NCBI GenBank assembly: GCA_905178155.1
Contig: CAJINV010000003.1
Location: 11,105,737 to 11,169,736 of the forward strand
DNA: 64,000 nucleotides
Source of the DNA: Amoebophrya sp. A120
Taxonomy: Eukaryota > Protista > Dinoflagellata
Direction: 5' to 3'
Shown here: positions 466-61,800 of the stretch, one piece after another
How positions within the stretch are numbered: the first letter of the stretch is position 1
Layout: each line of letters begins with the position of its first letter
The notes under the pieces: model-generated
The model's input: only the letters and a program-made list of their open reading frames with translations
The model's database searches: none
Told to the model about the DNA's origin: nothing
Made by a program: the position numbers and the translations under genes

Positions 466-593
466 TGTTTATACCAAATGCGCCCTTTGCCTCTTGGCAC
501 TTTTCGTGCAAAACCTGCACTCATGCCGACGCTTGTATTGCAATACCGGGGGTGGAGAGACGAGAGTTGTGCCCTCTCATACCCGGGCGTGAA

Positions 594-7170: not shown

Positions 7171-7194
7171 AGAAGCTTGGGCGCTTTGTCAGCA

Positions 7195-30251: not shown

Positions 30252-33200
30252 ATGGCAGCTCCACCATCGAAATTGGCGGCGCAGCGGCAGAGCTGCGCAC
30301 CTTTTCTGAAGCAAGTCGAAGGTGTGGGCTTACCTCACGGCAGTCCCAATCGACAACGGTGGTCCCGAGAGAGCGCAAAAGTTCCTTCTCACACTGTGTA
30401 TGAGATCCTCGCGAAGTTGTGGTATGCCGATACTGGGGATTGGGACTTTGGCCTGATGACAGACGTGGATGACAGGTATCTGCAGGAGTTTATCGAGGAT
30501 CTGAGGCGCTGCCTTTCCGAGTTGGAAACGAAAGAAGTTCCCGAGGAGCAGGAAAGGGCGAAGCAGAACGCTGTGGCTTTGTACAAGCGTGACCTCCTCC
30601 CGATCGTTGAAGAAGCCCTGCAACGGCAACGAGACAATTTGTCGGATTCCTTTTCCAGTGACATGGATTGGCTCTCTGCACTGTTGGTAAACCGCCTTCG
30701 GGAAAATCCGTTTGTGCCCACGACCGTGGACGAAGTGTTGGGATCTGGATCTGCAAAGGTACTTAGGGCATCGTGCTGCTCTACCTTTATTTTCAACTGG
30801 TTGCGAAGCTCCTGCATCATGGCCGTACTACTTCTCTTGACTCTCTGATTCAAGATTTCTATAATCAACGTAGAAGTTGTGTGTGAGCGCTCGTATAGTA
30901 GCAGTAGGGCAATCGCATTTGTTTGCGTCTGCGATGAATACTCTCTCTCACCCACTCGGATCAACAACGATCAATCAGGAAAACGATCTCGGAACGACGG
31001 CCAAGACTGTGCCACCGCACCACCCGCTGTGGAAAAACAAGCCAGTCTTCGTATCCTAAGTAAATACGTACCTATGAGTACTTCGCGCCCTCATTTGTCA
31101 TGAAAACCTTCGTGCTGAAAACCTCCCACCGTGTGGAGACAATTTTCTGATGGTGTTGTTTGGAATTCTGTTTCTGTAGTAGCGGTTTGATCAGGGTAGG
31201 AAAGACGGTTTTTGGTCGTACGGCTGTCCTATTTAGTAGCTCAGCACCCCTACGCTACGGATCTAGACTCATAATTGATATTGCACCGCCTGTCTATGTC
31301 ATCATGCGCAAATTCTCAACATCGAAACTCTTGCAAAAGTTCCACACTTGTTAACTGCGGACGAACAGGTAAGTACGCTTTTACTCAGGATACTTGGTAA
31401 AAAACCAGAGTGGAAAGGGTAGCGGACTTTATTTCGGCCGTGACGAAGCTCGTAATGGGTCCAGTTCAACATCGTCTTCAACCGGCACTAGGTGTTCGGG
31501 AAAATTGACTTCTGACGAGGATTCTTATCGTGGGTGCGGAGAAAAAGTGATTCAACCCGGCGAACTGATTTTCAAAGACTCCTCGCTGATCACGAGGATC
31601 GAGAAGAAGGAGAACTTCGCTGCTGACAACGTTAATAAGAACTGCTCTGCTCGGTCGGCGTCTTCTGTCGAAGGACAACGACCCGAGGATGACCGTGCAA
31701 AAAAGCGGCGCAGAGCTTTGTGCCGGTACCAACTTCGGACACTCTTTCCCGATTTCGAAAATTTGGTCGCGTTTCTATCGCTGTCAAACTGCTTGCTTCC
31801 CGACGTAGTCCGTACTAGTACTACCACGGCCGCAGATGATACCGCAGATGCTCGTGGTGGTGGTGGTTCTGGAGGCGTGGAGCACCACAACAGAGCGGCC
31901 CCCTCCGAGGTTGTACAGCAGAACCAGGAACACCCTCTGGAGAGATCTTGTTTTGAGATGAGCATGGCAGAGCATATCGAAGGTATCTACGTCACGAACG
32001 CCATCACTGTCGCCGACTTAGACAATCCCTTTGAGCTCTGTGGCACCGCCCTTTTTCCTCTCGTGGCTCGAATGCAGCTTATCCCACGCAAAAATCCATT
32101 TCAGTCTGGAACTGGAAGACCACGACAACGTGAAGTGCTGCAAGGTTATTTGTCATGCCCCAGGCTGGGTGGCGCGCGGGTGACCAACTCGTCCCCAGCT
32201 GTCGTGTGATCTAGATGGTGCGTGTTGATGCTTCATCCGGTAGCGGTAGAGTCGCTTTGTTTACATATTGCAGATTGGTGACATGCAAATTGTCATCATG
32301 TAGTTGACCAGCTCGCGAACTGCGTAAACACGACGGATTTGTCAATAAATAAAATGCTCTAGTAGGACTTGATTGAACAAGGACAAGCGTCGCGCTCCTT
32401 AAAATGAAACCGTGGTCTTGCAGTATCTAGAACGTCGTAGACTGAGACACGTTTGCAATGCATGCGGCACAGTGACACTCCAAACTGTGACGTGCAGGTC
32501 CGGCGCGTGCCGTGCCCGAAAGGAGCGCGGAAGCTGCGAGGCGCGAATCTCCAGAAAGCTCTGCACGAACGCATTGACTCGAAAACTCTGGCAGCACGGC
32601 AAAGAGGTGAGCCTACCGCCGGGCGGTGCCACCAGGAAAACACAAACAAAAGTGACGGCAGGGGCAGCTCCTTGTCCTGCTCCCTCCAAACCAATAAAGA
32701 CGACAAGAGAGTAAAAAGCACTTCGACAATTGCATTTCACTTCACCGCCGAAACGGATGCTATCCAGGGCTTCAACACCCATCACCGGTACTGCCTGCGA
32801 CAGGATCATGTTGCTTGCGGTGATGATTACGACGGAAGGAGTAGAAGCGTGGCCGCCGGTGATGAACAAAGGGAAGAGCAAAGGGATGAACACCAGGCGC
32901 CGCTGGCGCACACCTGGGAGGCCTTCGTCGTCGCGCTCCGTCCGATACCCCCCGGGGAGGAGTTGACCATTGATTATGTCGGACTGCACTGGTTTCTCGA
33001 CCGCCGGCGCACTCTTTTGCGCGACTACCGTTTCTGCTTGCCGGGTCTAACGATGGGGCCGAAGAAACACATTAGCACGACGGCACCAGACGGCAGTGTT
33101 GCGTTCGACGACCGCACAACTTGTTTGATTCCCGCGACCCACCGCCCCGGAATCGCTGCGTTGGAACGCGGCCTCCTTGAAGGAAAAGTACGAAAGCGCT

Positions 33201-39921: not shown

Positions 39922-42900
39922 ATGGAGGGGCTGGACGATCATCTGTCTGCGCTGAAGACGGAATGGGTCGTGCTGAAGGAAAAGTATTTCTACGGAGAGC
40001 AAATTGACCCGGTGTTTGAGGGGACGGTGCGGGATTTTTGTGAATTCGACCAAGTGATGCAGGAATTGTACAAAAACATCGAACAGTTTATGCGCAGCTG
40101 CGAGAACCTGTGCACGGGGATTCTCAAGGTAGCGGAAACCGTGGTCCAGGGGATGGGCAAAGAGAAAGACCCCCAGATTGCGGCCGAATCCTGCAAGCTG
40201 AAGGAAGCGGCCAACCAGATCACGCGCGTGGATGCCCCCCACAGTGCTATAGCGAAGCTGCGCCGAGACATGGACTTCAACATTCTCAATCCGATGCGGC
40301 AGCACTTACTGAACAACCGTACTACTTGCTCGTCGACATGTTGAGGACGTCATAGTCATTGATTCCACTTTACAATTTCGCAGATTTTTGTCATATGGTT
40401 ATATCGCCATATGTACCGTGCAAAAAACCCTCTTGCAGGGAGCAACATCATGATTTAATTAGAGGAGGGTCACAAACCTAATCCTTAGGTCCGCACCGGA
40501 CTTATGGACCACCCGGCCGGATGGTCCTTAGGTCCGGTGCCCCAAAAGTTACTTTGCGTAACTGCAACAGCTCAGTCCTACTCTGACGGCCGAGCTCTTC
40601 CGTGAGATTCCGCATATATTCAAGGGCAGAGCCACACTAATGCTTGCGCGAGCTATACTTCTCAGAAGGCTTGCACTCGCGCGGTGGAATTGATGAATGC
40701 AATTTCTTGAAAAGCAAAAGGCGGCCTCTATATGTTTTTACTGACGCACACTACGTTAGAGAAAACTGTCCCCACTACCCCGGTTTTCCCCAAATCAAAA
40801 ATTTTTTTATGAACTGATGCAACAACACGGCCACCGGCCGCGCAGCCCGCCCGGATAGTGTCCGCTAGTGGATCTTCTTCACGGATACTTTCTGAGGCTG
40901 TTACGTATGCAATGGAGCAAGCGGGATAGCGGCGCGCAAAAGTCGGCGCATGAGCTGACGGGGCAGCAAGCTTTGTGGATGTGTGTAGCTACTTCGGCCC
41001 CATCCGCGCGTGGGCTACTGCAACGCGGCCCCGCCACACTGGCCGCGCCCAACTTCTGAGGCTCCGGCCTCACCGTTTCCCTGGGGGTCGTGCATGCGTA
41101 CCTTTTCGGGAGGTTTCTGGTGCTCGTTTTGGTGGCCGAAAGTGCGTAGATAGCTGCTTAGGGCCGAAATCCCCAGCATACGTTTTTTTTCTCGCCAGCG
41201 TGTCCGAACATGCACTCAGGGAAACGGTGCCGGCCAGCCTCAAGCGGAGAAGACAGGTCCGCGGCAAGGGGCATTGCGTTCAGCCTTAGGTGGCCGGGGG
41301 GCGGGTCTGGCATGGGCGCCTTGCCCAGGGCGCTGCCTCGCGGGCCCCGAGCTGCTTGCGCCCCAAAAAGCCGGGCAAGGCGTGCAGTGTCTTTGAGTCC
41401 AGCAACACACCTGGGGGAGCGGGCTTCGGTCTGGCCATTCGCGGCGCAGGTCGCTTGCGAAGGGCCCGCCCTGCTTACAATTGGATCGAAAAAAAAAAAT
41501 TGTCTTTGGGGAAAACCGGGGTAGTGGGGACAGTTTTCCCTACCGTACACACGCAATGCCATAGGCAGTTCTGGATTGATGCAGTGCACGAAGTTTGTTC
41601 TTTTCTATGTATTTGTGGGACTTTCTATATTCCCTTTCCGCTAAAAACATCACCCGTTGGCCGACGTCGATCGCGCAGGCACAGTCACAATCATGTCGGG
41701 AGCGGCGCCGCAAGAAAACAGCCAGTACAGCGCCAACAATTGCCCATCACTAGTATTGTTCATCATCACCGCCATCACCTCTACCTCCAATCAATCCGGA
41801 AACGCCGCCCCGGCGACGGTTGCGACGGCGGCATCGGCGTTGGTTGCGTTGACACGGAGGAGGGAGAGGTGGTGGTGGTGACGACGCTGACGCTGCGCCG
41901 GCTGTTTTTCCTGCGGCACCGCTCCCGATACGATTGTGGCTGTGCCTGCGCGAACGACGTCGGTGTGCCTGCACGAACGACGTCGGCCAACGGGTGACGT
42001 TTCATTTTAGCGGAAGACGAATATAGAAAGTCCTATAAATGCATACACTGCAATGCAAAATCAAAAGCGAAACTTTCCAAATAGCTTCAAAAACCAAATA
42101 GAAAGTCCTTCCTAGTGCATATAAAGAAACTTCTTGCACTATCTACGTCAAAACTGCCTATGGCATAGTGCCGCCTCTTCGTGCAGAAATTGAATAACAT
42201 GCAGAATCTCGCGTAAGAGTTCTGCCGTCAGAGTGGGGCTCAGCTGCTGCAACTCCTCCTCATGCAGTTACGTAAAGCAACTTTTGGGGCACCGGACCTA
42301 AGGACCACCCGGCCGGGTGGTCCGTAAGTCCGGTGCGGACCTAAGGATTAGGTTTGTGACCCTCCTCTTATTGTTGTTCGCCTATAAATATTGGACGAAA
42401 TAAGTAGTGTGGTCTATCATGCTCCTCAGCATCGACACTGGAGGAAATTCTTCAAAAAGTATATCTTTAAAGAAACATTACCAACTCCCGATCGCACCGC
42501 CTCAGGCAACCTGAAGAGCAACCTGGAGCAGCGTCGGCGGCTATGGATGTGTCAGAGTTGAAATCGACAAAGTTGAAATAATTTGTAATGCATAAAATGC
42601 GACACAGAGACTGACTCTATTGCTGAAGGCGCAAGGGAGGCAGATTCTAGTGCTGGTAAGGGTCAAGCATTGGGCTGCTGACTAGCATGACAGGGAGCAG
42701 CCATCTTGCCCTAAACAGCATGACAGACTTGCTTCAGAGGCCAGGAAAATTTGTCATGCGCCGATTGGAAACTGCGGGTCCAACTGGTATAGATTTTATG
42801 CATCACAAACTATTTCAACTTTGTTAATTTCAATCCTGACAGTTCCATAGCGGAAGCTGATGGAGTACAAGAGCGCGAAAAAGCAGGTAGAGGAGCTGGG

Positions 42901-45208
42901 TAAGAAAAACCTGGTATCAAGTGCAAAAATGTCTGGGTCTGGAAGAATGCAAGTTTGTCATGCTTGTCTCGCATGACTCTTAAATTTGTCATGCACATTA
43001 CCCAAGAGCCCCATTTTTGTGGCATGCAGAAACGCAGTTTGTCATGCAGAATAGGCAACACCTAGAAGCTCAGAAACTTGTCATGCTGAGCCAGCATTTG
43101 TGGCCTCTTCGTAATACGCTACCCAGCATCACAAGTTTCCAGACCCAGACATTTTTGCATTTGATACCTGGGAAAAACGGACAAAAAGGTGATGCAGGCG
43201 GACGCCGCCCTCACAGCTGCCAAGGCACAGTTTGTCGAGTGCGACCGAAACGTGTTTGAGTGGCTCTACATCCTGGATGAGTACAAGGGCGACATCTTGG
43301 ATAGCACCATCCAGACCATAAAATACCTCCAGTACGAGTTTTTTGCCTCGTCCGCCCACGCGCTAAGCGGCGTGCTTCCGAAGCGGATGGAATTTCGCCC
43401 CATGGTCGAAATGACGCCGGAGCACCTAGAAAACCAGGTCGACATAGAGCTGCAGGAGACCGACCCAAACGAGGAATATCCTGTTGTATAAGGAGTATCG
43501 TACTCGTGGCATCTATGCCTGGCACGACACATGATGTGGTCCTGCTTTTATTTTACCGTAATCATAAGGTGCGTGACAACTTCGACTTCCATGCTTGTTG
43601 GTGGAAAAATCAGACTTTGATCTTGATGTCAACATTCTAGCGCGTGCGCGATACAATACTTCTTTGTTTCGCAATTTATACGGAACAAGAGGAGCCCATA
43701 ACAGATTTTGGAATCAAGCTCATTACCAAGCTCGAACGGGACGGCCGTGCGGTAGAAGAGGAGCCGGTACATCATCTTTTCTGAGGTTATTTTCGCTTTC
43801 ATCTCGAACTCGATTCTTACTCCGGTGTTTTCAGAAAAGAGTCGTATATATGACAAAAGAATGTATTTTTTCTTCTTGCAAAGCTATATGCAAGTAGTCG
43901 TGCACCAAGGCACCACTCGTTCATGTTTTCACAGAAAGTCGCCGTCGATCCCCTGTCGCTTTCGAGCTTGCTCAGCCAGGGATTTGACGAAGCTGACGCC
44001 CGCCGAGCACTTCGGCTACACAACAACGACACCCAGAGTGCCATGGAGTGGATTCTGAACGGGGGCAAAACCGCGAGTTCGGCCTCTGATGCCCAAGACG
44101 GCGTGCGCATGCCCACCACGATTCGAAGGATACAAAAGCTGCGAAAAAAGAGAAAGGATGAACGCGAAAAGCAGCGCGCTGAGAAGGCTGCGCGCGAAGG
44201 CGGTAAGAAGTTCTTGCTCCTCATCGTGTCCGTCTTCGTATGAACTATGATATATGAATTACGTATCATTTGACCTTACTTCTCTAACTCTATGAGGACT
44301 AGCTCAGGAATGCCACTGCTGCATTCACCAAGAAGTAAACACAACTGGGCTGCTGGACGAAGACATGCGTTTTTGCTATATGTTGCTTCTTTATCATCTT
44401 TTGTTTCTTTATTATCTGCTGCAAGCACATGATGCAACAAACAGTTGACAACGTCCGCCAGCCTACATTGGAAGAAATGGCTCAGAAGCAACCGGCTGCG
44501 CCCCCTGTGGACTTGCTCTCGTAGAACTTTTGCTCTCGTGCTTTTCTCGTTTTTATTTGCTCTTGAAGAGCCAGAATATATTGCTCAACTATAGATGTTC
44601 ATGCTGTTGTTGGTACCCACCTCCTCGTCAATTTTTGACGAGCCAGATACTCATACTGTTATTCTTTTGGACCATTGAACAAAACTACATGCTCGTGACC
44701 AACACCCTGAGAATGAATTTACAGATTGGATACCACGCCGCCGACCACTTCCGCCTCTAGTACGTCACCGCCGAGCGGTGGGCCCCCGCCGGATCTTCTT
44801 TCGCTGGATTCCGTCACAGATTTTTCAAAGCCGGTCACACGGCAATCTGTGCCCGAACAGCGCAGCTTCGACCCAAACGACTGCGAGCTCCGCGGGCCCG
44901 GTGCGGGATCGTCCTCTCCAAACACGCCTGCAGCAGCGACTGCTTCAGGAGGAGCCGCAACCGAAATGTCGCGGGAGCAGCTCATGGGTCTGTTGGCATC
45001 GGGTTCGCAGCTCACCCCGACCCAGCTCGCACAGGCTCAGAAACTGCTTGCTGCACCTTCCACTGCACCAGGTGCGGTCGCAAGCGGAGCACAGTCAAGC
45101 AACGTGGCAGCGCCGGCTCCGGTCGCGGCGAGCGGCGGGCAGAATGTTTCCACTGCCAGACCCGCCGCACCAACCGTCGCCTCCTCAATCGATGACCTGT
45201 TCTCCTAG
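39922..45208 (+). CDS. BAR-domain plus UBA-domain membrane-trafficking protein (exons 39922-40318, 42506-42541, 42855-42914, 43172-43476, 43686-43766, 43935-44202, 44445-44520, 44725-45208)
   Basis: Helical N-terminus with BAR-like DPVFEGTVRDF...ILNPMRQHL...LEQRRRKLMEYKSAKKQVEEL...AKAQFVECDR; UBA LSSLLSQGFDEADARRALRLHNNDTQSAMEWIL; two DLLSLD motifs and terminal IDDLFS. Confidence 0.82.
40462..42367. mobile_element. Non-autonomous foldback DNA transposon with TTA target duplication (PIF/Harbinger-like) inside GT-AG intron 40319-42505
   Basis: TTA|GAGGAGGGTCACAAACC ... GGTTTGTGACCCTCCTC|TTA; ~105-bp near-perfect TIR; imperfect symmetry continues inward to a centre near 41820. Confidence 0.88.
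40752..41547. mobile_element. Nested TIR element with TA termini and 5-bp target duplication CACAC
   Basis: CACAC|TACGTTAGAGAAAACTGTCCCCACTACCCCGGTTTTCCCCAAA ... TTTGGGGAAAACCGGGGTAGTGGGGACAGTTTTCCCTACCGTA|CACAC. Confidence 0.88.
42542..42849. mobile_element. TA-ended introner, same family as 18395-18705
   Basis: DR GCGGC/GCGGA; ~55-bp imperfect IR (ACAAAGTTGAAATAATTTGTAATGCATAAAAT); restores QRRRKLMEY. Confidence 0.92.
42915..43166 (+). mobile_element. TA-ended introner, 252 bp, GTCTGGGTCTGGAAG family
   Basis: Perfect DR CCTGG; reverse-complement twin of 56446-56697; restores KNLGKTDKK. Confidence 0.95.
43477..43680. mobile_element. TA-ended introner (old, AGTATCGTACTC family)
   Basis: DR AGGAA/CGGAA; TATCC...TTATA; excision gives DPNEEQEEPITDFG. 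Confidence 0.75.
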
Positions 45209-46878
45209 CAGTAGCAGGGTGGTTTTCATCCTCTCCACAGGAGCTGTCTACATCACAGTGCCAGTGCCAGTGGATAAGTTGAGCTACCTTCCTCCAGTTC
45301 TTGTGCAAATAAGCTACGGTTGAGAGTCTTCATCGTAGCTAGGCAATAGCTGTCGGTCAGCGTTGCTCCAGCTGCAGCGTTCAATGTTGCGAGTGGAAAC
45401 TGGAATACTAGTGCTCCTTGTCGCAGGAACGGACGAGGATGAAAAAGAAAAACGTATTTATAAAATTTTCGCACAGAAATGTAGAAGATGCGGCTTGTGG
45501 TCACCCGCGCCGGTTGTGCCACCTACTTTGAATGTACACAGTCAGCGCAGGAGAAACAGCTTCGATTCTTATTCGGTGGTCGCTGTGGCGGTGCCCTCGT
45601 CCTCGAACCGCTAATGTATGATGCTGAGAGGGTAACAATTCACTACGCACCGGGGGGTCCTCTCTCTGGGTCTGATTCGTGCGTCATCCTTTCTGGTGAA
45701 AACATCGCAGCAAAAAAACCGCAAAACCACTTCTGAGGTTGAGGAGCTTGAGCTTCATTACTTTTTTACAAAACGTGCAACGCATCGAGGAAAATGTCAA
45801 AATCAAAATAACCCGTCTGCGTGTAGTAGCGCCTTAATTGTGCATTGTGGTCAACACTTCGCCACTGTTTGCGGTGTTGAGCAGTTTCTCTTTTTTCTAG
45901 ACGTGCATCGTGACAATAGCGAAAGCTGTCGAGGATCATGTACGCAATGCAGATGGGTCATTCGTAGACTTAAATACTGTATTCTAAAAATGATCAAGAG
46001 TCGTGTCACCGCCATCAGTCACGATTAGATCTCAAAGTTGGGAGCGTCTATGTCATGTTGAACAAGCAGCAACTTGTGATGGTTTGGCAGTTCGAGCAAG
46101 CCCTGGCGAGTGTTGCATCAATCATTGGGCTTGAAGAGTGTGAGCGCAATAACAGGAGTCTACTTCGCACATATGCTGAGAGGATGATCAGGTGCAGATC
46201 AGTCACATCGGTTTCCGTGATCCCTTTGCAGCCTGCTGTCCCAGTCAAAACGTCATCCAGGTCCTTACTAACACACCAGCACTACAAGATCATGTAGTAT
46301 AGCATATATACTCAGCTACATCAACCTTATACATAGTAATGTTGTCGACTACTACGTTTATTTCTTTCTTTGTTTTTCCGATGAAAAGGTGATAAATATG
46401 GTTTCCACCACAGTGTCAGGGGGTCTGCATCCTGCCAATCCTGTATGATGTTTCTTAAGAAGTTCTTCGGTATTCATTTTCTTAACCAGTGAAAGTAATT
46501 CGCGTCGAAGTCGATCTCCTTCTGCTCGTCCTCGTCTTCGTGATAAGTAGTAGTTCACCAGGCAATTATGAACAAAAGATGCGCATTGTCAGTTGTAGAA
46601 ACGTTGTTGCAACCAGACGTCTTCGGCTTCGCCGCCTATGAAGTAGATGTTGTCACTTTTTACACCACCTGAGGATCAGGCCATGCGTCGCCTTGTCCCG
46701 CTAATTGCAACGGCGCAAGAAGAGCTACAGCTTGGCTGCACAACGGGGACAACAAGTATCAAGGCAACCGCTTTGGTAGTTATTTGCGAAGATTTCTATG
46801 ACTGGTACCCGGCACCACACCCTCTCGCTCCGTCACGGTCATTCGAAAGCGGCCATCGACCTTGAGTTGGTTCTTGAC

Positions 46879-49800
46879 ATGTCAGGGTCATCCGATCGCC
46901 GCAAAAAGTTTGATTTTGGTTTTGTTCGGGCGAGTTCCAGTGTCGTAGCTGCTCTGTTTTGGAGGTGGTCCTTTAGTATCGTACTCGTCGGTCAGCACGT
47001 AGAACTACGCCCGCCCCGTGTAGCGTTTGCAACTACAAACGTGGACCCAAACAATGTGGGACCGACGGGCGTGCCGACGGAGCAAGACTATGCTTGCATC
47101 TTTGAGTGCGCAGAGCGCGAAAATTTTGCGAGCCGTGTACCGGAGACGACGGACACGGCACGGCTCTACGGCTGGAACTCGTCCTGGAAAGAGCCACTAC
47201 GCGGGCAAACGACTGCAGAATCGCTGCGCAATTGCTGGAATCCCTTCTACCGGGCTGAATGCTGCGACAGTGGCGCACTTGCGCTGAGTTACTGCTACGA
47301 AAACAAATATCAGGGCTGCCGCGACAACGCTACAGAGCGCACATTCCCCGTCTCGCATCTGACAGCGTCGTGCGGCTTCGAGCCGGAGGGGGTTCGAGAA
47401 AACGTCGACGTGGAAGTGCAATTGCAGTTGGTAGCGACGCATCCCCGTGAAGAGCTCTCCGTGGTGCACTTGCGAAAGTTTTTCGATGCACTCGGCCTAG
47501 TTGTGAGCAGGAACAGCAGTACTTCTAGTAGCACGACGGGGGCAACTAGTGGCTCGTCCACGACCAGCCCGACGTCCTCCTTCCTCACACTTCGCGAAGA
47601 CGCGGACTATTGTAGTCTTGGGAAAACGCACGTGGATTGCCTCCGGCTGGGTTGCCAGTGGCTTGATGGCGGGGATGGGGTCCCCTATGCCCAGACCTTT
47701 CGGCGCTGGACGCCCTTGAATCGTTGCCGCCCCTGTCTGGATGACCCGTTCCTCTTGCATGCCGAGCCCTGGAGCGCCGTGCCCGGCTTCAACTGCTACG
47801 GGGATCCTGCAAACGCGTGCACGTGCGTCAAAAACCAGCACCCGGGCCTATGTTCCACAAACCAACACATGCAGGTTGCATGCCCGCGGACCTGCGCGGC
47901 CGAAGTTGCGGGAGCGAGCGGTGCTGTTCTTGCCCTTGCCAGTACCGTCATGTGTTCGGTCGTCAACGCGTCTTCTGTGGTGCGCGGCCTTGTCGGCACG
48001 GCAAAAGGAGGTGGCGGGTCGAACTCAAATCCTGGAAATGTTCTCAGTGGCACTACGACGACTTCTACCCTAACAGAACCTTCGACGTTCGACGGGGTTG
48101 GCAGTGCAGGCTTTGTTGACTTCTTGCGCAAAGCCTTTGTCAACATTACCGGACCCGTTTCCGTAGGTAGCACTACAGCCACGACGCTGCAGGCGGATGC
48201 AGTAGAGGACAGCACCAATGAAACTTACCAGCCGCTCGCTGGAGGCCTCGCCTTGCCCTACGGATTCGAGCTAACCGACACACGTTCGCCGGTTCAACGG
48301 GGAGTCGCTGCTTTGGCCAACTACGTGTCGACAGACTGTCGCCAAAAGATTGATCGCGCCCTGGCGTACGTCCGGACGAAATACGGCACGGTTGACTATG
48401 CCTGTGGCGCCGTGGATGGCGGTGTCAACCTCTGCAGTCTCACGGACGTGCAGATCGGCGTGAGCCCGCGAAGCGCCACGTTCGGTGACCTGCAGCGGTT
48501 TTTCTGGTGTCAAGACACAGCCCAGTGCCAGAGCCAGCAGGGCCTGACTGCGCCACCCTACTGCAGCTCGCCACCATGCGACTCCTGTGCGACCCTCACA
48601 GTGTCGGCGCCAGTATCCAGAGTGAAAACGCACCTGGCGGTAGTCGTGACCCTGATTTGTGACCACAGAGCACACCTACAATGACTAGCGCAGGCCTAAA
48701 AGAAATATATGCGGCTCTTCATGCACAGCCCCGCGACTATTAGTGTTTTCTCATGCTGTTAGCTGGGGCGGCTCAATTTGTGACGCTACTGCGCGGCGCC
48801 TCGCCAAGAACAATGAATGAGAGCAATATACATAGATAGACCTAGCAAGAAAGCCATTCACCTCACACATAAGAGCGGGAGCCTTTGACTTGTGTAGCAA
48901 AACTGACTGAAGCTGAAGCTCTGCGGGTACATAGTTTTCACTCAGGATAGGGAGTCGGCGGCTGTGTGGGCTGGGTCGATACGCACTTCAACAAGCGAGC
49001 GGCCACTCGCGACGACTCCGCCCCGCTGGCCACGCGCGCCATCTCGGAGTGGGCAGCTCACAACAAGGGGCTTTGTCAGGGACCCTGTGCCGGGGATGCG
49101 GATTGTATGCACGGGCTCAAGTGCTTCAGCGATCTGCCGGCCGGAGTGGTCACCCCGGGTTGCGTGCTGGCGCAGCACCTAGACGCGTCGACTGCGTTTT
49201 CCGTGTGCGCGCCACCCGCAGGAGAAGACCTGCCAAACTTCTCGGTGGTCACCGGGGTCCCGGTGCTGGACGCCACCCGGGAGGACGTCTGGCGTTACGC
49301 CTACTGCAGCTACCGACACAACTCCAGCGCGGCTTGCCACAACGTGCCGGCCCCTACAGGGTGCTCCCGGCCGCCCTGCGACGTTTGCCCCGTCGCGAAA
49401 GAGGAAGAGCCTGCGTGCGAGTACGGACCTCTGAACGACACGCAACTGGTAGATGCAGAATGCTTGGCGGAAGTAAACCGGGTGCGTCTCGGGCAAGACG
49501 TGTCCTACCTCGGAAACGAGTCCGTCTGGCGCAATGTGACTGGGGTTTCGCAGAACAGCAGCACGTGGGCCGACGTGGCGCGGCGCTTGCGCTGCCACTA
49601 CCTGTCGGCGGGAACAACAAATAATGCGAATAGCGTTAATACGCAAGAAAACACGAACTGCAGCAAGATTGAGCTTTTCTCGTGCTCTCACCCGCCCTGT
49701 GACACGTGCAACGCTTCGCTCGGGATGCAGTACGCGCCACCGGAAGCGCAATGCGCGCTACGGAATAACTTTCTCGCTGAAAACGCGACTACACTAGTCG

Positions 49801-52800
49801 ATGTGGTCCTCGCAACACCATTGGATCTCGTGGTGACTACTTCGCCGCAGCAAGCGGAACAGAACGGTCCCCGAAATTTGCATGAGCATGCACAAGGACA
49901 GCAACCGTCAACTAGAAGAACCGAGATCAACTACCAAGAAAATCTACATCGCGGAGCTGTGGTTTTGCTGCCCGATACGAGGAACGCGGCTGACCAGCAC
50001 GATGCACAAACTTTGCAAAATTCGAAGAGAGCTCTGGACGCCTCACACACAACGACACAGTCTGCGGCCGAACCATGGTTCACCTGCTTGCGGAAAGATG
50101 TTGGCATGGCGGAGGCCGATCCCAGCGGGCTGTATTTAGACGTGGAAGAAAATGCGATTTTATGCAACCTAGCTGATCTGCAAAAGGGGGGCAACGACGA
50201 GGAAGACCACGATCATGCTCACGGCGTCGACCAGCAGTCCACGGCACAACCACCACGACGGCGCGCAAGGGCGTTGAGTGGCTACCAGTGCTGGGCCCAA
50301 ACGCCTGCAGACGAGAGCTTCTGTGAAGACGCATCACAACCGAAATTTACCGACCAAATGCTGTGCGACCAGGAGCCGCAGTGTCACTGGGGCCCGGTGG
50401 GCAACGACGAGGAAGAGGACCAGGGCCACTGCTTCGCGATTGCTGCAAGTGATCAAGCGTTCTGCGAGGATTCCGGCGCACCGCACTAGTATCCTGTGTA
50501 AAAGTATCGTGGACCTCCACGTACATGCGAATATTAGCATTGGTAATAGCCAAAAGTATTTTTGTGCACGGTAGCCCATTTGCTTTTGCAATTCGCTCCA
50601 AATCCAATTTTGAGGTTTCTAATTTGTTGTCAGTGCGATTCTTAGAATTTGCGATACTTTTACAATGAATGACCACCATGACGAAGCCATGTGTAACAGC
50701 GAGCCGCAGTGCGAATACCGCCAGGACAGCAGCAATGCTGGAGACTCGAGCTCCTCGCCTGCGCCTAGCGGCGATGGAGGCGGCAGCTGCTATGGCCGCT
50801 CCAGCATGCATCAGCAGTATTGCGAAAGTTTTAGTCACAGCCAAGCTGATTGCAATAATAATGCGCAATGCGAGTACCGATATACGACCACAGATTCCTC
50901 CTCTTCGACCGAGCCGCCGGCAACGGCAGGCGGATCGGGATCCAGCACACCACATTGCTTTGCGATTAACCCCGGGAATACCATGGACCAAAGCTTTTGC
51001 GAGGATCCGCAGGCTGCTCACTACCACGACGAGGCTATGTGCAACAGCCAAACAGGCAGGTGCGAATTCCGAGCAAACGACGGAGGGACAACCGCCTCGA
51101 GCTCTTCCGCCCCAGCGCCCCCAGGTGGGGCAGGTAGCTGCTACGGAATTCAGAGCATTGATCAGACGCACTGCGACGGTTTTAGCCACAGTGAGTCCGC
51201 GTGCAACAGCGAAAATCTGTGCGAGTACCGTTACACAACTGGGACTGCTTCCTCGACGCAGGCCCCGCATAGCGGCGGTGAAGCGCATTGCTTTGCGATA
51301 GATGGCACGGCGAACCCAGCGGACCAAACTTTTTGTGAGGATCCCCAAGCCGCCCACTTTCACGACGAGGCTATGTGCAACAGCCAAACAGGCAGGTGCG
51401 AATTCCGAGCGAGTGACGCCGGGACAACCGCCTCGACCTCTTCCGCCCCCACAACTCCGAGCAGCGGGAGCTGCTACGGTATCGCTGCAGTGGATCAACA
51501 GTACTGCGACAGCTTCAGTCAGAGTGCAGCGGAGTGTAACAACCATCCTGCTCAGTGCGAGTTTCGCTACGCAGGAGCTTCGACGTCCGGCCCGACCTCA
51601 TCGACGACCACAACCACGACCCCAATACCGGGGCCGCAGCTTCCCGATAATCCGCACTGTCGCTGTCGCGCGAACCCCGGCACCAGCCGCATCGAGTGTC
51701 AGACCTTTCCCGTCCGTCGCGTCGAGGACTGCGCCGAACTTTGCTACATGCGCTCTGCCGCCGTGGGAGTTTCGCCTGCCCAGGCGTGCGGGGGTTGGGC
51801 TGCTAGCGTGAACGTGACAGACACGGAGTTTGCGTCATTCGGAAAGCAGCACAATGCTAGCGACCAGGTCAATGTCATGTGCTCTTTGTATCGAGCCTAC
51901 AACACGACAGCGCTGACCCGGTTCACCGGTAAGGTGCCCTCGACAGGACCTGCTTCTTCTAGTGCAACACCTAGCCAACAGCAGTACCGGAGGGTAATAT
52001 CCGGCCCAGCAAACTGCACGCCCCCGGAGTTCGCGTGGCGCGGGCGGACGGGCGTGTGCGACGCGACGCAAGCGGGCTATTTTCAAGAAAACACAAAGGA
52101 GGTTGTGTACATGTCCGGGTTTCCCTTGATGGGCCACGTAAGTATCCCCGACTTTCTGCTGCCTGACTACCCGGAAGCGCACCACGGCTGTGAGAACCAG
52201 GATTGCAGCTCCACGAGAACGTTTTACGCCACCAAGCCGGAAGATTGCGCGTTCGCTTGCAACCTGTTTGGTGGTTGCATGCGCTACATGGTGCGGACCG
52301 CGTCGAAGGCAGACTTCGCGCACGACGGCAACGTGACCTGCAGTCTGCTGGGAAGCGCGACCACTTCCTCCGAGTTTTCCCTCGATGTTTTTGTCGCGGA
52401 CAAGCGGTGTTACCCGCCGAGCGTGGGCTGGGAGCTATGCATTTTTGCAAAAGTATTGTATTAGTCAGTTGTAGAACTAGAAGTTGTTGCATAATTATGC
52501 CGTTTCCAGCTTCTTCTTGCGGTTGCGAGAACGAGCAGAAACAATGCATATGTATGCGGCAGATTTATCTAAGAGCCGAGATTTGCGTTTGTCATGAATC
52601 AAGATGTTCGAAAATTTTACACCTGACTACTACGATACTTGTTTTGCAGTGGATAGAGGCTGGCGTACGGTGATTTTGCGCGGCTGCACGGAAACAATCG
52701 GCACGACCGGGACGTGCTCGGCGTGTACAATCTGACATTCGCGGTCGGGTTGAATCGCCTGTCCTCTGCGGAGGTGGAGTCGTTCTGCTCCGGGACGGAC

Positions 52801-55800
52801 CCTGGCCGCTTCTGGGCGGACCAGATTTTGGACAAGTTTGGTGGCGCCATACAAAGTCCAATCCCGGAGATTACAGACGGTCGCTCAAGCCTCGCGTGCC
52901 CGCTGCGCTCGACGAACTACGAAGTTATGAACAGTAGCAGCGTGGTGGGTGGACAGTCGGCCACGGATGGCGGCCAGCAGCAGGAGCAGCACCACAGCAG
53001 TGAATCCGCGTTCCTGCGGGAGGTTGAATTTTTGCGCGTGCGCCACCAGAGCATCGCTTCAGCGCAGAAGTTCCTCATCGCAGGGGGAACCACTAGCACC
53101 ACCACCACTTCGCACTGGCCCTGCGTTCTGCGCCGCGGAGCCTTGGAGCCTCGAAGACACACGTGGCCGGGCATCGTCCCGTCGTACTTCTGGACGCTGT
53201 TCCTTTCTCCCTTCGGGCTGAATGCAACTCTAGATCATGATGAAACGGGTAGTACTAGCGCTACACCTACAAGCAGCTCTCCTTCTCCAACACAAACCTC
53301 AAGCACCAGTTCGAGCGCGGAGGACCGCGACAGCCAGCTGTATCGAAACATTTCGAAGAGCTTCGAACTTTGCCGGCCGCGCATGGCGGCTCCGTTTTGC
53401 GAGCGCGTCCGCATCGGCGATAGCCCCGGGAAATCCGTGAAGACGGTCTACCTCCCGGACTCCTTTGCGGCAACAAGTTGCGATCCAAGCCAGGTTTTTG
53501 ACGCTGTGTACGGTCCGGAGCAGCCCGCCAGTGGCACGTGGGCTCTAAACCAGTACGGGCGCTATCTGACGGTCAATCGCACAGACAGGACAAACGGGTG
53601 GAGCCAACACTATTCAGTGCAGTGCTGCTACCCCACCCACTGGTCTAGCACGACACCCAACGAAACCTTGCATACAGAGCAAGTTCCGGGCCAACACCTC
53701 TACCGTGCTGTGCTGGACTCGTTCGCACAGGATACCGTGTACGCTGATCAGCGAGTGACGCCCACCACCACCAACGCTGACCTGCTCGGCACGACGCCTA
53801 AGCTTCCGGCGAAGCTGACCTGGAAGTTCGGCGTGCAGATCTACAACGGCGTCAGAAAAGCCATGTTCACACTGAGGCTCGCGGAGATCAAAGCCTATGC
53901 CTACGACAATCCAGAAGAGGAAATTCCTTTGGTCTTCACGGAGGCGCGGCCGAGTTTGCTCTACAACCAGGGCGACTACGCCGTGGATTCAAACCAGCAA
54001 TCGAGCGCAGAAGTGCCTCCCACTTTTGGCTACATGGAGGAGGACGGGATTTTTCTGGAATATCGGGGGGAACTTTCCTACCACGGGCAGCTGTTGGGTT
54101 CGCTGGTTTTGCTGTTCTCGGAGCTCCCCGTCAACGTGAAGGTCAGGGTCTTTGACGCCCTGAACCGGCCCGCGGATTTGATGGGACAAACGAGCTCACC
54201 ATCGACGTACCAGGCGACGGGTCCTTTTTTTCCCGAAAAAGCTTTTACCTCCTCTTGGCCGTCGACTTCGATCAGTGGGCAGCGGGTCCCGCACACGGAC
54301 GCGTATCTCCGGAGATTAGCGGACGGTAAAAACGCCCAGTACGTGGAGCTCAGCCTCAAGCTACGTGCGCGATCTGTCCCAGCACAGATCTTCTTTCTGA
54401 AGGCTGTCGCGGGCGGCGGAACTGAGCCTCTCCTTGCCGTGCGGCTCCGGGAGGCGAGCATGGAGCTCGTAGATCCCAGCAGCGGGGCGGTTTTGGAGCC
54501 CAGTTCTCTTCTCGAAGATGAGGAAAATCAAAATGCGGGAATGAACTACAAACTGAACTTCTACGAATTCACAGAATTTTATTTCCTCTTCACAACGACG
54601 ACGGATGAGGATGACGGTGGAGGGTCCTCCACCTCGTCCACGACAGGTGGCTCAACGACTAAGGCGAAGTTTCAGATAGGCCGGGGAAAAAGCGCTGTCT
54701 TCACAAGAACGCATATTGTTTCGAAAGCCTACGAGCTGAACGATCTCGATTTGCAAAGCACAGCGCTGCTGTTCGAGGTGGCCAGTGTGGCCGTGCGGCT
54801 GGATGATCCGGAGCCTTGCTGCGAGCCGTGGTTCGCTAACCACGTGTTATACGAGGGTCTCTATCACGAAAGGGACGCGACCACTGTCCTCCATGATCCC
54901 TTCACCCAAAAGCGGTGGCAGTACGACGGCTGCGCTGACGAGGCGCGATGGCACGCAAGCGATCGGTGGTACTTCCGTGACACCTACTTTCACCTGCCAC
55001 TCTACGCCCGCGCGTGTGGAATCGGGTTTCCCCGAGACGCGTACCATTTGATGAGGAATTTCCGAGAGCACAACCTCGTGCACCTGGACTACGACGTGGT
55101 CACCAGCGACCCGTGGGCTGGTACGGTATCGGAAAGCTTTGAAACTCGGGTGCTCGACACGCAAAGCGGTACGGTTTTCGAAGGCCCCGCGGCGTCGTTG
55201 AACTTGACAAATTATCTGGAGAATGTTGATGCCACGTCTGGCGTCACGCTTGTCACGTTGGGCAACCAGGGGAAGTGGAATGATCCCTCCGCGAACAGTC
55301 CTTTCCGCGTTAGCGTTTCGGTTCCGCAAGACATGCTGAACCTCCAGAGACCAGTATGCAGCGAAGCCGTAATTTTACCGCACACAACGACGTCGTACTA
55401 GAGAAATGAATTTACCTACTTGCATCCATAGTATGGCCCTTCTTGCTGGGACGACGAGCAAAATATATTCTCAATGTCATACAACAGGAGAAGTGGAAGT
55501 TTTCCACCTTTCCGTGCGCTGTAGTCGTGTGTCGTCGCGTGTGGTAAATCTAAATTTCTATTGCATAACAGCAGGAGAGCAACTACAAGTCTACCTTCCG
55601 ATTGACCTACAATACTTCCAATTACGGCGACGGCTGGCAGACCGTGGAGAGAGGCGACTTCTTGGGCTATGTGCTCGCCGCCGCTTTGAAACGCGCGTTG
55701 CAGGACGCTGCGAACTTTACCGCGGCCCAGCACTTCCTGTCCGCGGTGAAAGCCTCGCTTTACAACGACTCGCTCGCTGCCGGGCAGTTTCTCCCGAGTG

Positions 55801-58800
55801 CGGAAAAGCAACTTGCTTCCATCACGCACGAGCGCTCGGTGTACTACGACCCGCAGGGCACCACGTGCCTCCACGACTGCCTGCACAGGTACGAAACCAC
55901 CGTCGAGGAGCAACTTTACGGCGGGTACTCGAAGCCGACCTTTCCGTACACGGTCGGGAACCACACGGCGCACAACCGGGCAGAGTTTTTTCGGTACTGC
56001 CTCCCGGAAGTTGCAAACTTGAACGAGAACCTGACGCTCGCGACAGTGCCGCCCCAATTTGAAATGGACTCGCAGAACAGCACGCTGCGGGGTCTCTGCT
56101 GCCAAAACGGGTACTTGGCGGAGGTGATGCAGTGCTTTCGGCGCCGGTGCGATCCGGCTGGGGACGCGTTCTTCAACCGAGGAAATCCAAATCGGTACCC
56201 CTACTCCGCACCGTACGACAGCCTGTGGCGCCGCGCGTCCACGCGGACGTTCGAGGACCGCGATCTGGAGCGCAGCTTCTCCGCCTATATCCAGGAAAAA
56301 ACACCCATCCCCATCCATTTTTTGCATAACAGATAGTGCATTTTATGCATGTTTTCCATGACAAATTGGATGGGGATGGGTGTTTTTTCCTGGATAGCCT
56401 ACCACGCGATCGAACGGGGCTGCGACATCACGTACCAAGACCTTCTATCAAATGCAAAAATGTCTGGGTCTGGAAACTTGTGATGCTGTGTGGCGTATCA
56501 TGAGGAGGCGACAATTGCTGGCTCAGCATGACAAGTTTCTGAGCTTCTAGGTGTTGCCTATTCTGCATGACAAACTACGTTTCTGCTTGACAGAAAAGTG
56601 GGGCTCTTTGGTAATGTGCATGACAGATTTAAGAGTCATGCCAGACACGCATGACAAACTTGCATTCTTCCAGACCCAGACATTTTTACGTTTGATACCT
56701 TCGGGAAACGAGCAACGTCACGCTTCTGGCGGCCAGTGGCGGACAGGGGATGACGGGCGTGGTGAAAATTAGGGTAAGCCGGGTCTTGGCGGAGAACCGG
56801 TTGCTCAACGTACAGGTGAACGGTGCCACGGAAATTTTCACGCAAGGGCATCTGGATTTCATGCGACTGTCCATCTGGGACACACTGGTGAAAAAGTACC
56901 CGGCTTGGTACGACGACGGCGTGTTTGACGTCAGAGTCGACAACCCGCTGAATCACGTGGAGCTTGGACTCGAGTACGGCGGCGCGAGCGAGACGAGTGA
57001 CCAGAACGGCTTCTCGGAGACTGTGTTGGATTACAACCTCAAGACGTTGATACTCGGCCGGCTGCCAAGTCAGGCCGCCGCACAGCTGAAGATAGACTAC
57101 GCGACGAACGAGCACGGCTTCCACCTGCGCAGCGAGTGGAGCTCCCTCGGGTGCTTCCTCTCCGAGGTGGTTGAAAACTGGCTTGCTCCTCCGGCTGGTG
57201 CGGCAGCAGCCTCATCTGGACCACGGCAGCGAACACTGCAGGCGAGGGTTTTGACACAACAAGCCGAGGAGACTGGTGCGGAGGACGTTTCCGCGGAAAA
57301 TGCGTGTGCTCTGGCGTGCGCTAACTTTCGGTACTTTGCGCTGAGAGGCAGCAGCACGTGTGTGTGCGGCGATGCGTTTGGATCTGCTTTCGCCGGATCG
57401 GCGTCGGTGCTGAGTGTCAACCACACAGAGTGCGCGTGTCGCGCGCCGCAGCACACGCCCGCGACTGACAGCAGCGCTTCTTGTTTGTACCGCACCGGTT
57501 TCGGAGCGGATCAGGGTGCGCTGCGCTGGAACTTCACGTTTCCGCAAAGTAGCGCCGGATACTCCACCCTGTACCACACCGCGCAGAGCCGCCAACTGTT
57601 TGTTCCCCGAACCACGGACACGAGCTGCCTGCAGGAGCAGTGTTCTGCGGAGCTCTGGCACGGATTTGCGCGCCTTGGGATCGGAGACATCCAGGGCCAC
57701 GGGGGAAGGATATACAATTTTTCAGCGTATGCAGGTGGCGTCACGCTTCTGGACACCAGCCAGCGTGCGCTTTTTGACCACCCCGACCTGTTCCAGTTTT
57801 TCGACCAGGCCAGCGCCTTCCCGCTGTCGTACCACTCCGAGGGGAGCAGTGCAATGTCTACCGCTCTGGGCACGGTGATGTCGCCGGACCATTTCTTCCG
57901 CAACCTCGATGTTTGTCTGAACGTGACGAACACCACGGCCCCGGTACGATTCGAGAACTGTTGTCCTTTGCTATCCGCGTACAGCGGATGCGTTCTCGCA
58001 AAGTGTCGGCCCAATGCGACCTGGCGCTATGGGTATGACACGACGACCTTTGACGCCGAGGCGCAAGAAACTACACCGGGTGTCGGTGCAGTCACGTGGC
58101 CCGCAATCTGGCCCGGGATCGCCAGGCAGTGCCAGTTTTCCACCCCGGAAAACATGACCAAGCTGCAGAACCACACCTACCTCGGCTTTCGCGAGCGATT
58201 TGGCTTCTTCCCGCCGCGAGTAGACGTGGACGTGAGCCGGCGGTCCCGCGAAGAGTACCGACGGATCTTCACGGGCTTGTTCGCACAGGAACTGCTGGAA
58301 AGCAACCAGCTGCAGCTGTGGCAGAGTGTCTACGTCAAGAACGTTGGCGTCACCGCGTACGCGCGTCCCGTTTCCGGGTTGAGCTACAACCAAAACGGCA
58401 CGGCCACCGGCTCCGCGCCACTCACCGCGGAGTATCTGCTGGTCGACGCCCGAACTTTTGCGCGAGACCCGGGCGAGTTTGTGGTAGATGGGGCGGAGGG
58501 GGATGAAATGGCCCAGCACGGAATGCGGTGCGACGGGGGGGCGTTTCCGGGTGTGCAGCTGGAACCGCTCTCGGAGCTGGAGTGTGCGCTGCCCGCCGTG
58601 CGCAATTTCGCAGACCGCGCCATTCCTGAGCTGGTTCCAGAAAGTGGGGTAAGTGTCACGTCGCCAACAATGACGCTGTTTCGTGTGAAGCACTTCGCAT
58701 GCGAGTCGTGGTCGCTGGAGCTCATATCGGACGCCGAGCACTGCATTGGCGAGGCTAGCGCAGCAAAAAGTTGGGCGTCGTCAAACAACCTGCAGGTGGT

Positions 58801-61800
58801 GGGCGGTCGCGGCGTCACGGAAACGGACCCGAGGAACCCGCGGGGCTGCTATTGGGACGAGGAGGGGGAGCAGTTCCGCTACAACCTCGCGCCACGCACG
58901 CCCTATGACTTTCGGCTGACAACCCCACAAAAGTGGGTCCTGTGTAGTTCATCCTCGTCGCCAGGTGACAAAACTTGGCCAACGGCAGTCACCGACGACG
59001 GCAGCCCCATGCCCGCCAACCCCCAAGACTACCGCCCACAGGGTTGCCTGGTGACGCATCATCAAGACACGGTCACTATGTGGTACAACCAGTTCGTGGG
59101 CAACGCGCCCCAGAACAGCATGCGGCCCTCCTTTCCGGAATGGGTGATCTGCCGCGTGAAGAACGACCAGTTTCTGCAGCAGGTCGTTGACGTCGGGTCC
59201 GACGGATCCGTCAACGAGTTGCCACGGCAGGCGCTGACTGTGTCCAAAGACTACGGCGCGGTCACGCTCAACCGCACGCGGTTCGGAAGTCACGGACGCT
59301 CCGACGCCGCCTGGAACTTGACGGTTGAATGGTACTACGGGCCGTTTCGCGAGCCCTTCAGCCCGACCGCGCAAGAAGCTTTGAACGTGCTCGCATCCGA
59401 TCGCGCCGCGTTGTTGTCCAGGTTGAGCAGCGCCACAACTAGTACTTCGTCATCCTCGAACAACAACCCGGAGGTGTACAAAGATTTTCTCCCCTACACA
59501 GCCCAAAGCAACAGCGGCGCTTGCTTCGCGCCCAACTTTGTATCAAGAGCGGAGACGTGGGTGACGAGTCTGTCGGACGAAGTGCTGGTCCAGGTGCTTC
59601 GTGGTGATGCGGAAGTGCCATCTCTCACAACCTGCGAGCAGCGTTGCTCTGAACAGCATCGTTGCCGGTACCTTTCTTACTTCAACGAAAACGACGAGGC
59701 CCCCGCTGGAACTACGACCACAGGGGGAGCCACGCTGTGGCTTGCGCCGGGGCCCCTCTGCCTCTTGTGGGCCAGGTGCAATAGTACCGCGCTTTTCCGC
59801 GAATCGCCCGCCGATCTGATGGTGACGAGGCGCAAGCACTCGGCGGTCGTTCCATTGCCGCGCAACGCGACAATCTTCAGTGACAGCCCAAGCAGTGGTG
59901 CCAGTACTAGAAAAGCGTGGTTTACGCTGAACACCGAAGATCAGGAGACGCAGGAAATTTTTCTCTGGCGGGAACTGGTTCCAGAGGACACGTGGGTGGT
60001 CCCAACCACGAGCACGTCGACCACCACAACCACGACGCAGCCGTACCATTGTCTGCTGGTGCACTGCCTGTACAGCACTTCGCCCGATGCGGTAGACTGG
60101 GTGCAGGTCTTTCCCGAATTCAGCAACCACTATACAGAGAGCGTGACTTACACAGGCTTCTACGAGCGCCGGTGGCATCTTGATGAAGATGATGCCTCGT
60201 CATCCTCGTCGAGCACGACTCTGATGCCTCCTGGAGGCGCTCCTGCCAGTGGTGCTCCACCACGACGGGAGCTCGGCCTCCCAACAACGACAACTAGCGC
60301 GCCCCCGCCAGCGAATCTTGAGCTACTCAGCCTCCAAGACGCAAAGGTCGAGAGCTTTTCGCGATGTTTGTTTCCGTCCATCCGGCCGGAGTGCTGCGAG
60401 GCGGCGCGGCAAGTTGCGGTCTGTTACGCAAAGGCGCAACCCAGTCCGTGTCTCGGAGGGCCAAACGCCGATCTGGAGTTCAACACAACAAGCTTCATGT
60501 CGACGTGCGCGACAACCACTTCCACCAGCACAACAACCACGACACAGCCCTACGACTGCTTGCTGCAACATTGCCTGTACTCCAACACGATTGACTGGCC
60601 GCAACTCTACCCGAACTTCAATAACGACTACGAGGAGAGTCCCCTCTATGCAGGTTACTACGAGAGAAAATTTAGCACCACCACAACGCATGTGCCAGGG
60701 ACCACGCCCGATCCAGCGAGTAGTACCAGCGACGGACCTCCGCGATTGCTGTATGAAGACAGTTCTTCTAGTTCGCCACCGCCGGTGGGTGGTATCGGTA
60801 TGACCTCCACTATGGGTCCCCCGCCTAGCTATCTACTGCGCTTCGAAGACGCGCAGGTGGAGAGCTTCTCGCGCTGCTTGTTCCCCTCGATTCGGCCAGA
60901 ATGTTGCGAGGCAGCTCGACAAGTTGCGGTTTGTTACGCAGCCGCGAGTCCGAGCCCCTGCGTCGGAAATACAGATCGGGAGTTCAACACGACGAGTCTG
61001 CTGTCTACCTGTGCGACAACCACAACAACGACTACAAGCACGAGCACAACGACAAAGCCGCACGAGTGCCTCATTGTTCATTGCCTGCACAGCGGCAGTA
61101 TCAATTGGCGACAGGTTTATCCCGATTTCTCGAACCAGTTTGAGCAGAGTGACACTTATGCAGGGTATTTCACGAGACTCGACGCCATCGCGACAACGAC
61201 CGTGCCGCCCGCTTCAGCCGGCACGACGAACCCCCCCGACTTGACGACCTCTGCGCCCCCGTCCTCTTCCCCCGCAGCTCCAGGTGGTATAGCGGGAGGA
61301 ACCAACACGAACAGTCCCACGACCACGACGTGGGGACCGCCGAGCCATTTGGTCAATTATGGGGATGCGATCGTCGAGAGTTTCGAGCGGTGCCTGTTTC
61401 CCTCGATTCGCGCAGAATGTTGCGAAGCGGCAAGGCAGGTCGCAGTCTGCTACGCGGACGCGAGTCCGAGCCCCTGTGCTGGAAATTCGGATCTAGAATT
61501 CAATACGACCAGCCTGTTAACAACATGCGCCACGACGACCAGCACGACCACGACGACGACCAAAGCGTTTGACTGTCTGCTGCAGCATTGTCTGGCTTCT
61601 AACGCAGTTGATTGGCTACAGGTGTACCCGAGTATGCATTGCACGATGAAGAGTGTCGTACTCGTAGTCGTACTAGTGGGAGATGCATTTTTACATACGA
61701 GCTTTATTTCGAAGAACAAAAGTGAAATTTGTCAGGAGAGGTAGAAGCAACTACAGCAATTAGTACGACGAGTTCTTCTACGATACAACTTTTGCAATGC

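Follow-up and report, generated by a model that had tools for sequence, protein, structure and literature searches.

A stretch of 64,000 nucleotides (nt) of the dinoflagellate Amoebophrya sp. A120 (contig CAJINV010000003.1, forward-strand positions 11,105,737 to 11,169,736; the window) was found to contain two copies of one 252-nt element, A and B, which lie in opposite orientations in two genes of the + strand and are both removed from the transcripts of these genes. The removal is very probably a form of RNA splicing that is independent of orientation and defined by the ends of the element. A and B belong to a known class, the introner-type non-canonical introns of A120 (Farhat 2021, PMC7789003). 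According to that paper, more than 60% of the A120 introns lack GT-AG, and U1 small nuclear RNA (snRNA) is apparently absent. The best overall explanation, held with moderate confidence, is that the A120 introners are spliced out by a modified spliceosome for which the folded-back ends of the element in the pre-mRNA, and not GT-AG, are the signal.

The inverted pair and its removal from transcripts

Copy A was found to be the reverse complement of copy B, with 19 substitutions in 252 positions (92.5% identity) and no indels, and each copy was flanked by perfect 5-nt direct repeats that differ between the two (CCTGG in A and CCTTC in B); the pairwise alignment thus agreed with an earlier inspection of the letters alone (the sequence-only reading), which had counted about 19 substitutions by eye. 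When the copies were compared in the same orientation, 136 of the 252 positions differed. The 143-nt core of A scored 226 against the reverse complement of B and 18 against its own reverse complement, shuffled sequences reaching at most 25, so the opposite orientation is genuine; a core that is a palindrome, for which orientation would have no meaning, was rejected on these scores. The terminal inverted repeats (TIRs) were 30 nt long, with 1 and 2 mismatches in A and B, respectively. Because the target duplications differ between the copies, the element has been mobile in the past, as the sequence-only reading had proposed. The longest stop-free stretch of the element was 61 codons and no long open reading frame (ORF) was present. 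Four TGTCATGC repeats were found in the interior of A, on a single strand only.

A search of Rfam with 42800-43300 gave no matches at E values up to 0.1, so the element was not recognised as a self-splicing or other Rfam RNA. Two viral pattern matches were rejected, as no BLAST match to the element was present at E 1e-4, and four prokaryotic matches to a short degenerate pattern were presumed to be chance. Low-depth joints of transcript contigs were also observed inside element A (42967-43125 and 42980-43126) and probably represent internally deleted family members from other loci.

The transcript data were the contigs of four runs (X1 to X4) from two samples of one study, which carry neither strand nor splicing-efficiency information; the runs were presumed to be RNA by guess, and their contigs do skip GT..AG introns. 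At copy A, the contigs were found to join 42908 to 43166, with 257 nt skipped, in four of four runs. At copy B, they were found to join 56439 to 56697, with 257 nt skipped, in three of the four (X1 to X3, all from one sample, with X4 not covering the B gene). Both joints lay on the main path of the contigs at a depth like that of canonical joints, and since GT..AG joints on the + strand are present in these very contigs, the host strand of both copies is +. The statement of the sequence-only reading that both orientations are removed was borne out by these exact joints. The removed length corresponds to the element and one direct repeat, and the frame is restored only by 257 nt; retention of the element brings stops in all frames, and a removal of 252 nt, which was considered and rejected, shifts the reading frame. 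The earlier claim that both copies must go to keep the frame was therefore right about the need for removal and wrong about its length, which had been put at 252 nt.

The joint at A slides over seven positions, and none of the seven placements is GT..AG for A or B, so the two introns are not of the canonical U2-type GT (or GC)...AG kind. Frame-compatible GT/GC..AG pairs were present near A (27) and near B (14), none of which corresponds to the joint seen. Cryptic canonical splicing, including that from a GTAAGA donor which precedes A by 15 nt, was rejected because the observed joint is the exact 257 nt; the sequence-only reading had named the use of such sites as evidence against itself, and candidate pairs do exist, yet they were not the ones joined. 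The product of the A gene assembled from the transcript joints matched the annotated A120 protein P0001 at every residue, and no insertion was present at the A site when it was compared with orthologues (10 of 10 examined). A raw-read run under the same species label (X10) matched only at the element end 56666-56697, with foreign flanks and without exon cover, and this match is probably a related element of another strain.

A search with a 38-nt pattern gave 17 loci (L001 to L017), all in one other assembly, which were found to contain 53 elements that end in TA...TA and have 5-nt repeats of varied sequence. Nineteen copies with clear core orientation were kept for a census, and the host strand was called where the longest ORF and a codon model agreed. 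L007, which duplicates L004, L008, which is truncated where its contig stops, and three copies that scored 34-37 in the core were dropped. Nine of these copies were oriented like A and eight like B, followed by two without a call; the strong orientation bias that would have spoken against the sequence-only reading is thus not seen in this assembly. Both orientations were present inside one 352-codon ORF of L013, for which no strand call is required. The window elements at 18761, 22499 and 24246 were left out, as their orientation was unreliable (core scores 39/21, 18/17 and 26/18, respectively).

Several points weigh against orientation-independent removal. The transcript contigs come from two samples of one study, and those of B from one of them; the splicing of the 19 outside copies was deduced from reading frames; and the codon model alone gave the correct host strand in 29 of 33 held-out windows.

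The same loci showed further features of introners. L001:255-2363 and L016:315-2559 each contained six introners in a single gene within about 2.3 kb, with exons down to about 30 nt, and one 261-codon frame was obtained at L001 when all six were removed. The left and right inverted repeats of elements in L001 to L017 were often of different end types, such as TATGGA on one side and TATCAA on the other, which suggests an exchange of ends between families.

Probable register of the cuts and conservation of the ends

Where the direct repeats are perfect the joint slides, whereas imperfect repeats reveal in the mRNA which copy gave each base. Ten junctions were informative in this way, six from transcripts and four from annotated proteins. 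Lower bounds on the cut were given by 48614, 50490, 52436 and 36100, where it falls no earlier than after repeat position 3, and by 55355 and 31052, where it falls no earlier than after position 4; upper bounds came from 42542, 50490, 55355, 32080 and 34487 (position 4 or earlier). The sole cut compatible with all ten is after repeat position 4. For cuts distributed uniformly over the repeat, a shared cut position has a p value of 0.0027, or 0.012 when the GT-AG intron is left out. A fixed register N-TAT...ATA-NNNN, in which the 5′ cut precedes TAT by one base and the 3′ cut follows ATA by four, is therefore likely. The form N-TAT...AT(A/G)-NNNN was compatible with all 16 non-GT-AG introns among the 29 introns mapped in four window genes, and all nine predominant non-canonical motifs of A120 in the Table S4 of Farhat begin with NT (PMC7789003).

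The fixed register is weakened by other observations. The p value was 0.048 on the transcript junctions alone and 0.12 on those without the GT-AG intron, and four of the ten informative junctions rest on annotated proteins and not on reads. The intron at 52434 can also be read as GC..AG one base earlier. The sites are described as variable relative to the hairpin in the legend of Fig. 3 of Farhat, and the position of splicing is treated there as variable or not known (PMC7789003). A target preference (G at repeat position 5, AG at positions 3-4) was looked for in 49 host-oriented elements and nothing clear was found.

The ends of A and B were predicted to form a terminal stem of about 30 bp on either strand, with z scores of -9.3 and -7.8 and a folding energy of about -110 kcal/mol. 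In 11 older spliced introns, the 5′ TAT was present in 11 of 11 and the far end was ATA in nine and ATG in two, whereas in-register pairing at positions 4-16 was down to between two and eight of the 11. The terminal triplets look selected. When the four most decayed introns were folded, the ends were still predicted to pair, with bulges. The ATG end retains a wobble pair with the U at +2. In 52 elements, pairing at inverted-repeat positions 4 and 7 was no better than the family composition predicts; pairing above composition at positions 9-16 was not counted for an RNA stem, as the scan selected it and transposition would do so too. The host-3′ ATG in place of ATA was observed at 50490-50671, 32080-32464 and L015:1292-1549 (the strand call of L015 being weak), and no change of the 5′ T was observed among the mapped window introns.

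The 192-nt core cannot hold a required strand-specific signal. The outer 30 nt are nearly alike in both orientations, with several adenosines and a run of U among them; the inverted ends could hold a linear signal, so a branch adenosine or a U-rich tract in the inverted repeat could be required. The sequence-only reading, in which no strand-specific branch point or pyrimidine tract is needed, thus holds for the core and goes too far for the 30-nt inverted repeats. Its further proposal, the symmetric TIR stem as the likely signal, also goes too far: stem and terminal sequence are not told apart as signals, the triplets being kept in all 11 older introns and the inner pairing in fewer.

Proposed mechanism and alternative explanations

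The element would have been inserted by DNA transposition of the kind seen in miniature inverted-repeat transposable elements (MITEs), any five bases being duplicated and no orientation preferred. The 257 nt, comprising the element and one repeat, are gone from the transcripts and the original coding sequence is restored. A stem of about 30 bp, predicted from either strand, would draw the ends together. The imperfect repeats suggest that position +2 is then always U, as in GU, with +1 and the last two bases supplied by the target. In the last and least certain step, catalysis might be provided by a U2/U5/U6 spliceosome in which the paired TAT/ATA end replaces the recognition of U1 and AG, and the branch adenosine might lie within the symmetric end. 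Spliceosomal chemistry guided by the paired end is given an even chance. The modified spliceosome is favoured because the +2 U is invariant, because one intron is GT..AG at the same register and because most spliceosomal proteins are present; for A120, 83 of 89 are reported, with U1 snRNA undetected, and inverted and direct repeats are reported in 15% of the canonical introns (PMC7789003). Two points stand against it. A 30-bp stem, as modelled, would hide any branch point as well as the 5′ site and would need unwinding. The G at +1 and the terminal AG, which spliceosomes read, are missing, 34 different end pairs (GT..AG in three elements) being found at the fixed register among the 49 host-oriented elements.

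A more general proposal is put forward tentatively, namely a new route that ignores the interior, the orientation and both canonical dinucleotides, measures the cuts from the paired UAU/AUA end (one base on the 5′ side and four on the 3′ side), and may be carried out either by a new nuclease-ligase or by a spliceosome that lacks U1 and has gained a new factor for reading the ends.

The removal might also be independent of the spliceosome, which seems rather unlikely. A structure-guided nuclease would then make a staggered cut at the base of the hairpin (1 nt on the 5′ side and 4 nt on the 3′ side) and a ligase would join the exons. Neither a +1 G nor a terminal AG would be needed, and the strong predicted stems in both orientations, together with the predicted end-pairing that survives in the four decayed introns, agree with such a cut, as does the undetected U1 snRNA (PMC7789003). 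Removal of the nuclease-ligase type has been suggested for the nonconventional introns of euglenids, of which the stem introns are released as circles without lariats (PMC11282704). However, the invariant +2 U and the GT..AG intron at 55354, which has the same register, are against it, and 43477-43680 is removed exactly despite its poor terminal stem.

It is unlikely that a spliceosome uses linear signals in the inverted repeat, with the stem as a by-product of the transposon origin. These signals would be the UAU of positions +2 to +4, the run of U found 11-15 nt ahead of the element end, and a 3′ cut measured from a branch A in the terminal ATA. The conserved triplets and decayed inner pairing of the older introns, the pairing at positions 4 and 7, which does not exceed the compositional expectation, and the last 30 nt, which are the same in both orientations, are all consistent with it. 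However, both deviant ATG ends among the 11 introns still wobble-pair with the +2 U, no strand-specific compositional difference was found between the 5′ and 3′ ends of the 49 host-oriented elements, and the four canonical introns inspected end in other motifs.

Template switching at repeats across strong hairpins is an artefact of cDNA synthesis, and the joints might represent such switches of the reverse transcriptase between the direct repeats, with the real mRNA keeping the element or being read past it. The perfect 5-nt repeats that flank the stable stems of A and B would suit this reading, as would joints that are known from cDNA-derived contigs only. It is nevertheless very improbable, since introns with one or three shared bases or weak stems are skipped equally cleanly (50488, 48612, 52434 and 43473), retention ruins a protein conserved across dinoflagellates, and the joints lie on the main path at canonical depth.

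DNA was represented by X7, a DNA-type run that may itself be the source of the assembly and whose contigs hide rare forms; 14,765 of its contigs were placed on an 18-kb stretch, with a depth heaped on the elements that is no measure of copy number. These contigs were unspliced. Excision at the DNA level, with transcripts derived from an empty allele, is hardly credible: the TA...TA ends and direct repeats do resemble those of ciliate internal eliminated sequences, but the X7 contigs retain the elements. They run on from exon sequence into the ends of A and B (43142 and 56669) and read through other introns as well. The 257-nt joint was absent among the 15 of 241 X7 joints displayed, although contigs drop rare variants and a minor empty allele is possible.

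The inverted pair amounts to a natural experiment, in which the interior is ruled out as the site of a required signal and 30 symmetric bases are left for it. The probable register and the conserved TAT/ATA triplets indicate where the branch point is to be sought and which form of the excised RNA is to be expected, and the register provides a rule for placing splice sites that are ambiguous in current annotations. The value lies in this mechanistic constraint and not in a new system, the element class being published. If the end-measuring route is true, any transposon with such ends would, wherever in an exon it was inserted, be excised perfectly as an intron, and the spread of about 30,000 such elements would be explained.

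Host genes, neighbouring introners and known systems

Three window genes corresponded to annotated Amoebophrya sp. A120 proteins at 100% identity, one of them being the A gene, by its first exon. The earlier name of the A gene, BAR/UBA, is fair, as UBA was detected directly and some orthologues have an entry for Pfam BAR. The B gene, earlier called a giant surface gene, contained at least 5,234 open codons within the window, with internal repeats near 60313-62900; EGF-like domains were present, and the name is plausible.

Table 1. Coordinates of the two copies, their host genes and the other introners of the window.
Feature	Position	Strand	Remarks
Copy A, 252-nt element with 30-nt TIR TAT...ATA	42915..43166	+	alignment, ORF check
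Left direct repeat of A, CCTGG	42910..42914	+	right copy 43167-43171
Inferred intron A at fixed register, 257 nt, GT..TG	42914..43170	+	joint in 4/4 runs; register from other junctions
Copy B, same family, reversed relative to + strand host	56446..56697	-	alignment, core scores
Left direct repeat of B, CCTTC	56441..56445	+	right copy 56698-56702
Inferred intron B at fixed register, 257 nt, CT..TT	56445..56701	+	joint in 3/4 runs
Host gene of A, 568-aa BAR-like/UBA protein, 7 introns (4 GT-AG, 3 introner-type)	39922..45208	+	
Host gene of B, of great length, encoding EGF-like domains; transcript contig of 19,286 nt	46780..64000	+	continues beyond the window
Other introner of A gene, repeats GCGGC/GCGGA	42542..42849	+	cut at or before repeat position 4
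Decayed introner of A gene, weak terminal stem	43477..43680	+	exact 209-nt removal
Introner, repeats GCCAG/GGGAG	48614..48949	+	cut after position 3 or later
Decayed introner, ATG end, repeats ACTAG/ACCAC	50490..50671	+	cut after position 3 or 4
Decayed introner, repeats GGAGC/GAGGC	52436..52655	+	cut after position 3 or later (GC..AG if 3)
Introner-derived, today a GT..AG intron	55355..55567	+	cut precisely after repeat position 4
109-nt near-palindromic introner, repeat GCCTA	56288..56396	+	micro-exon of about 44 nt between it and B
Introner of SET-domain gene, repeats CTTCG/CTTGG	31052..31392	+	cut after position 4 or later; Phe of annotated protein

The direct repeats of the intron 55354-55571 differ at three positions, all of which, under the fixed register, fall within the intron and account for its G and AG; this intron is likely an introner that was converted to a canonical intron. 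The 2,187-nt GT-AG intron 40319-42505 was found to contain nested inverted-repeat elements, with arms at 40457-40623 and 42190-42372, followed by elements at 40752-41547 (CACAC duplication) and 41606-42045. A kinase gene like those of SR-protein kinases (a relative is named SRPK3) was present at 22144-28706 and contained four introners and an exon of about six codons (23994-24011). Window positions 1-7500 contained dense satellite arrays with units of 8, 13, 19, 20, 22 and 23 nt, which are possibly subtelomeric.

Among known systems, A and B correspond to the A120 introners in the genome of origin, the TIR start (TAT, seven bases and at least three A), the 5-nt direct repeats, the repeated family, the non-GT-AG ends, the length of about 250 nt and the missing transposase. 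In Farhat 2021, the inverted repeats start with TAT, 7 nt and AAA, the direct repeats are 3-5 nt, 29,850 copies are counted and no transposase is reported for A120; the inverted repeats are given as 8-20 nt, whereas those of A and B are 30 nt (PMC7789003). The family fam12 of Gozashti 2025 (331 copies, 252-260 bp; PMC12130899) is likened to A and B by dimensions only. The filter of that study demands same-orientation matches (PMC12130899), whereas the method of Gozashti 2022 permits opposite-orientation matches, and the passages available of the latter give no opposite-orientation result (PMC9860276). No sense/antisense analysis or fixed register for Amoebophrya was found in full-text literature searches, in word searches of the Farhat text and supplement or in the passages of Gozashti 2025, and subscription papers, figures and two supplementary files may hold one.

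The element has the features of a MITE, being 252 nt long with TIRs, no coding capacity and varied 5-nt duplications in the 53 elements. The introners of Micromonas and Aureococcus share with A and B the MITE-like structure, the TIRs, the target duplication and the insertion in both orientations, which is attributed to Huff et al. 2016 by a review (PMC10228655; see also PMC11282704 and PMC7789003). Those introners carry or co-opt canonical splice sites, whereas here the +2 U alone is fixed and the target is free, as the variety of end pairs in the 49 elements shows.

The nonconventional introns of euglenids resemble A and B in the non-canonical ends, the terminal stem (predicted here), the duplication-like repeats and the probable MITE origin. 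They contain CAG/CTG at +4 to +6 and -8 to -6, whereas the ends of A and B are N-TATC and GATA-NNNN and lack this motif; they belong to an unrelated lineage and have been shown to leave as circles (PMC11282704). The non-canonical introns of Fritillaria borealis are likewise derived from MITEs and are removed by an adapted spliceosome; they show a preference for AG-AC/AG-AT ends and for TAC targets (PMC11282704), whereas the A120 elements have free targets and are independent of orientation. To the known class of A120 introners, the probable additions made here are the orientation-independence of removal, a probable fixed register of the cuts and the kept terminal triplets.

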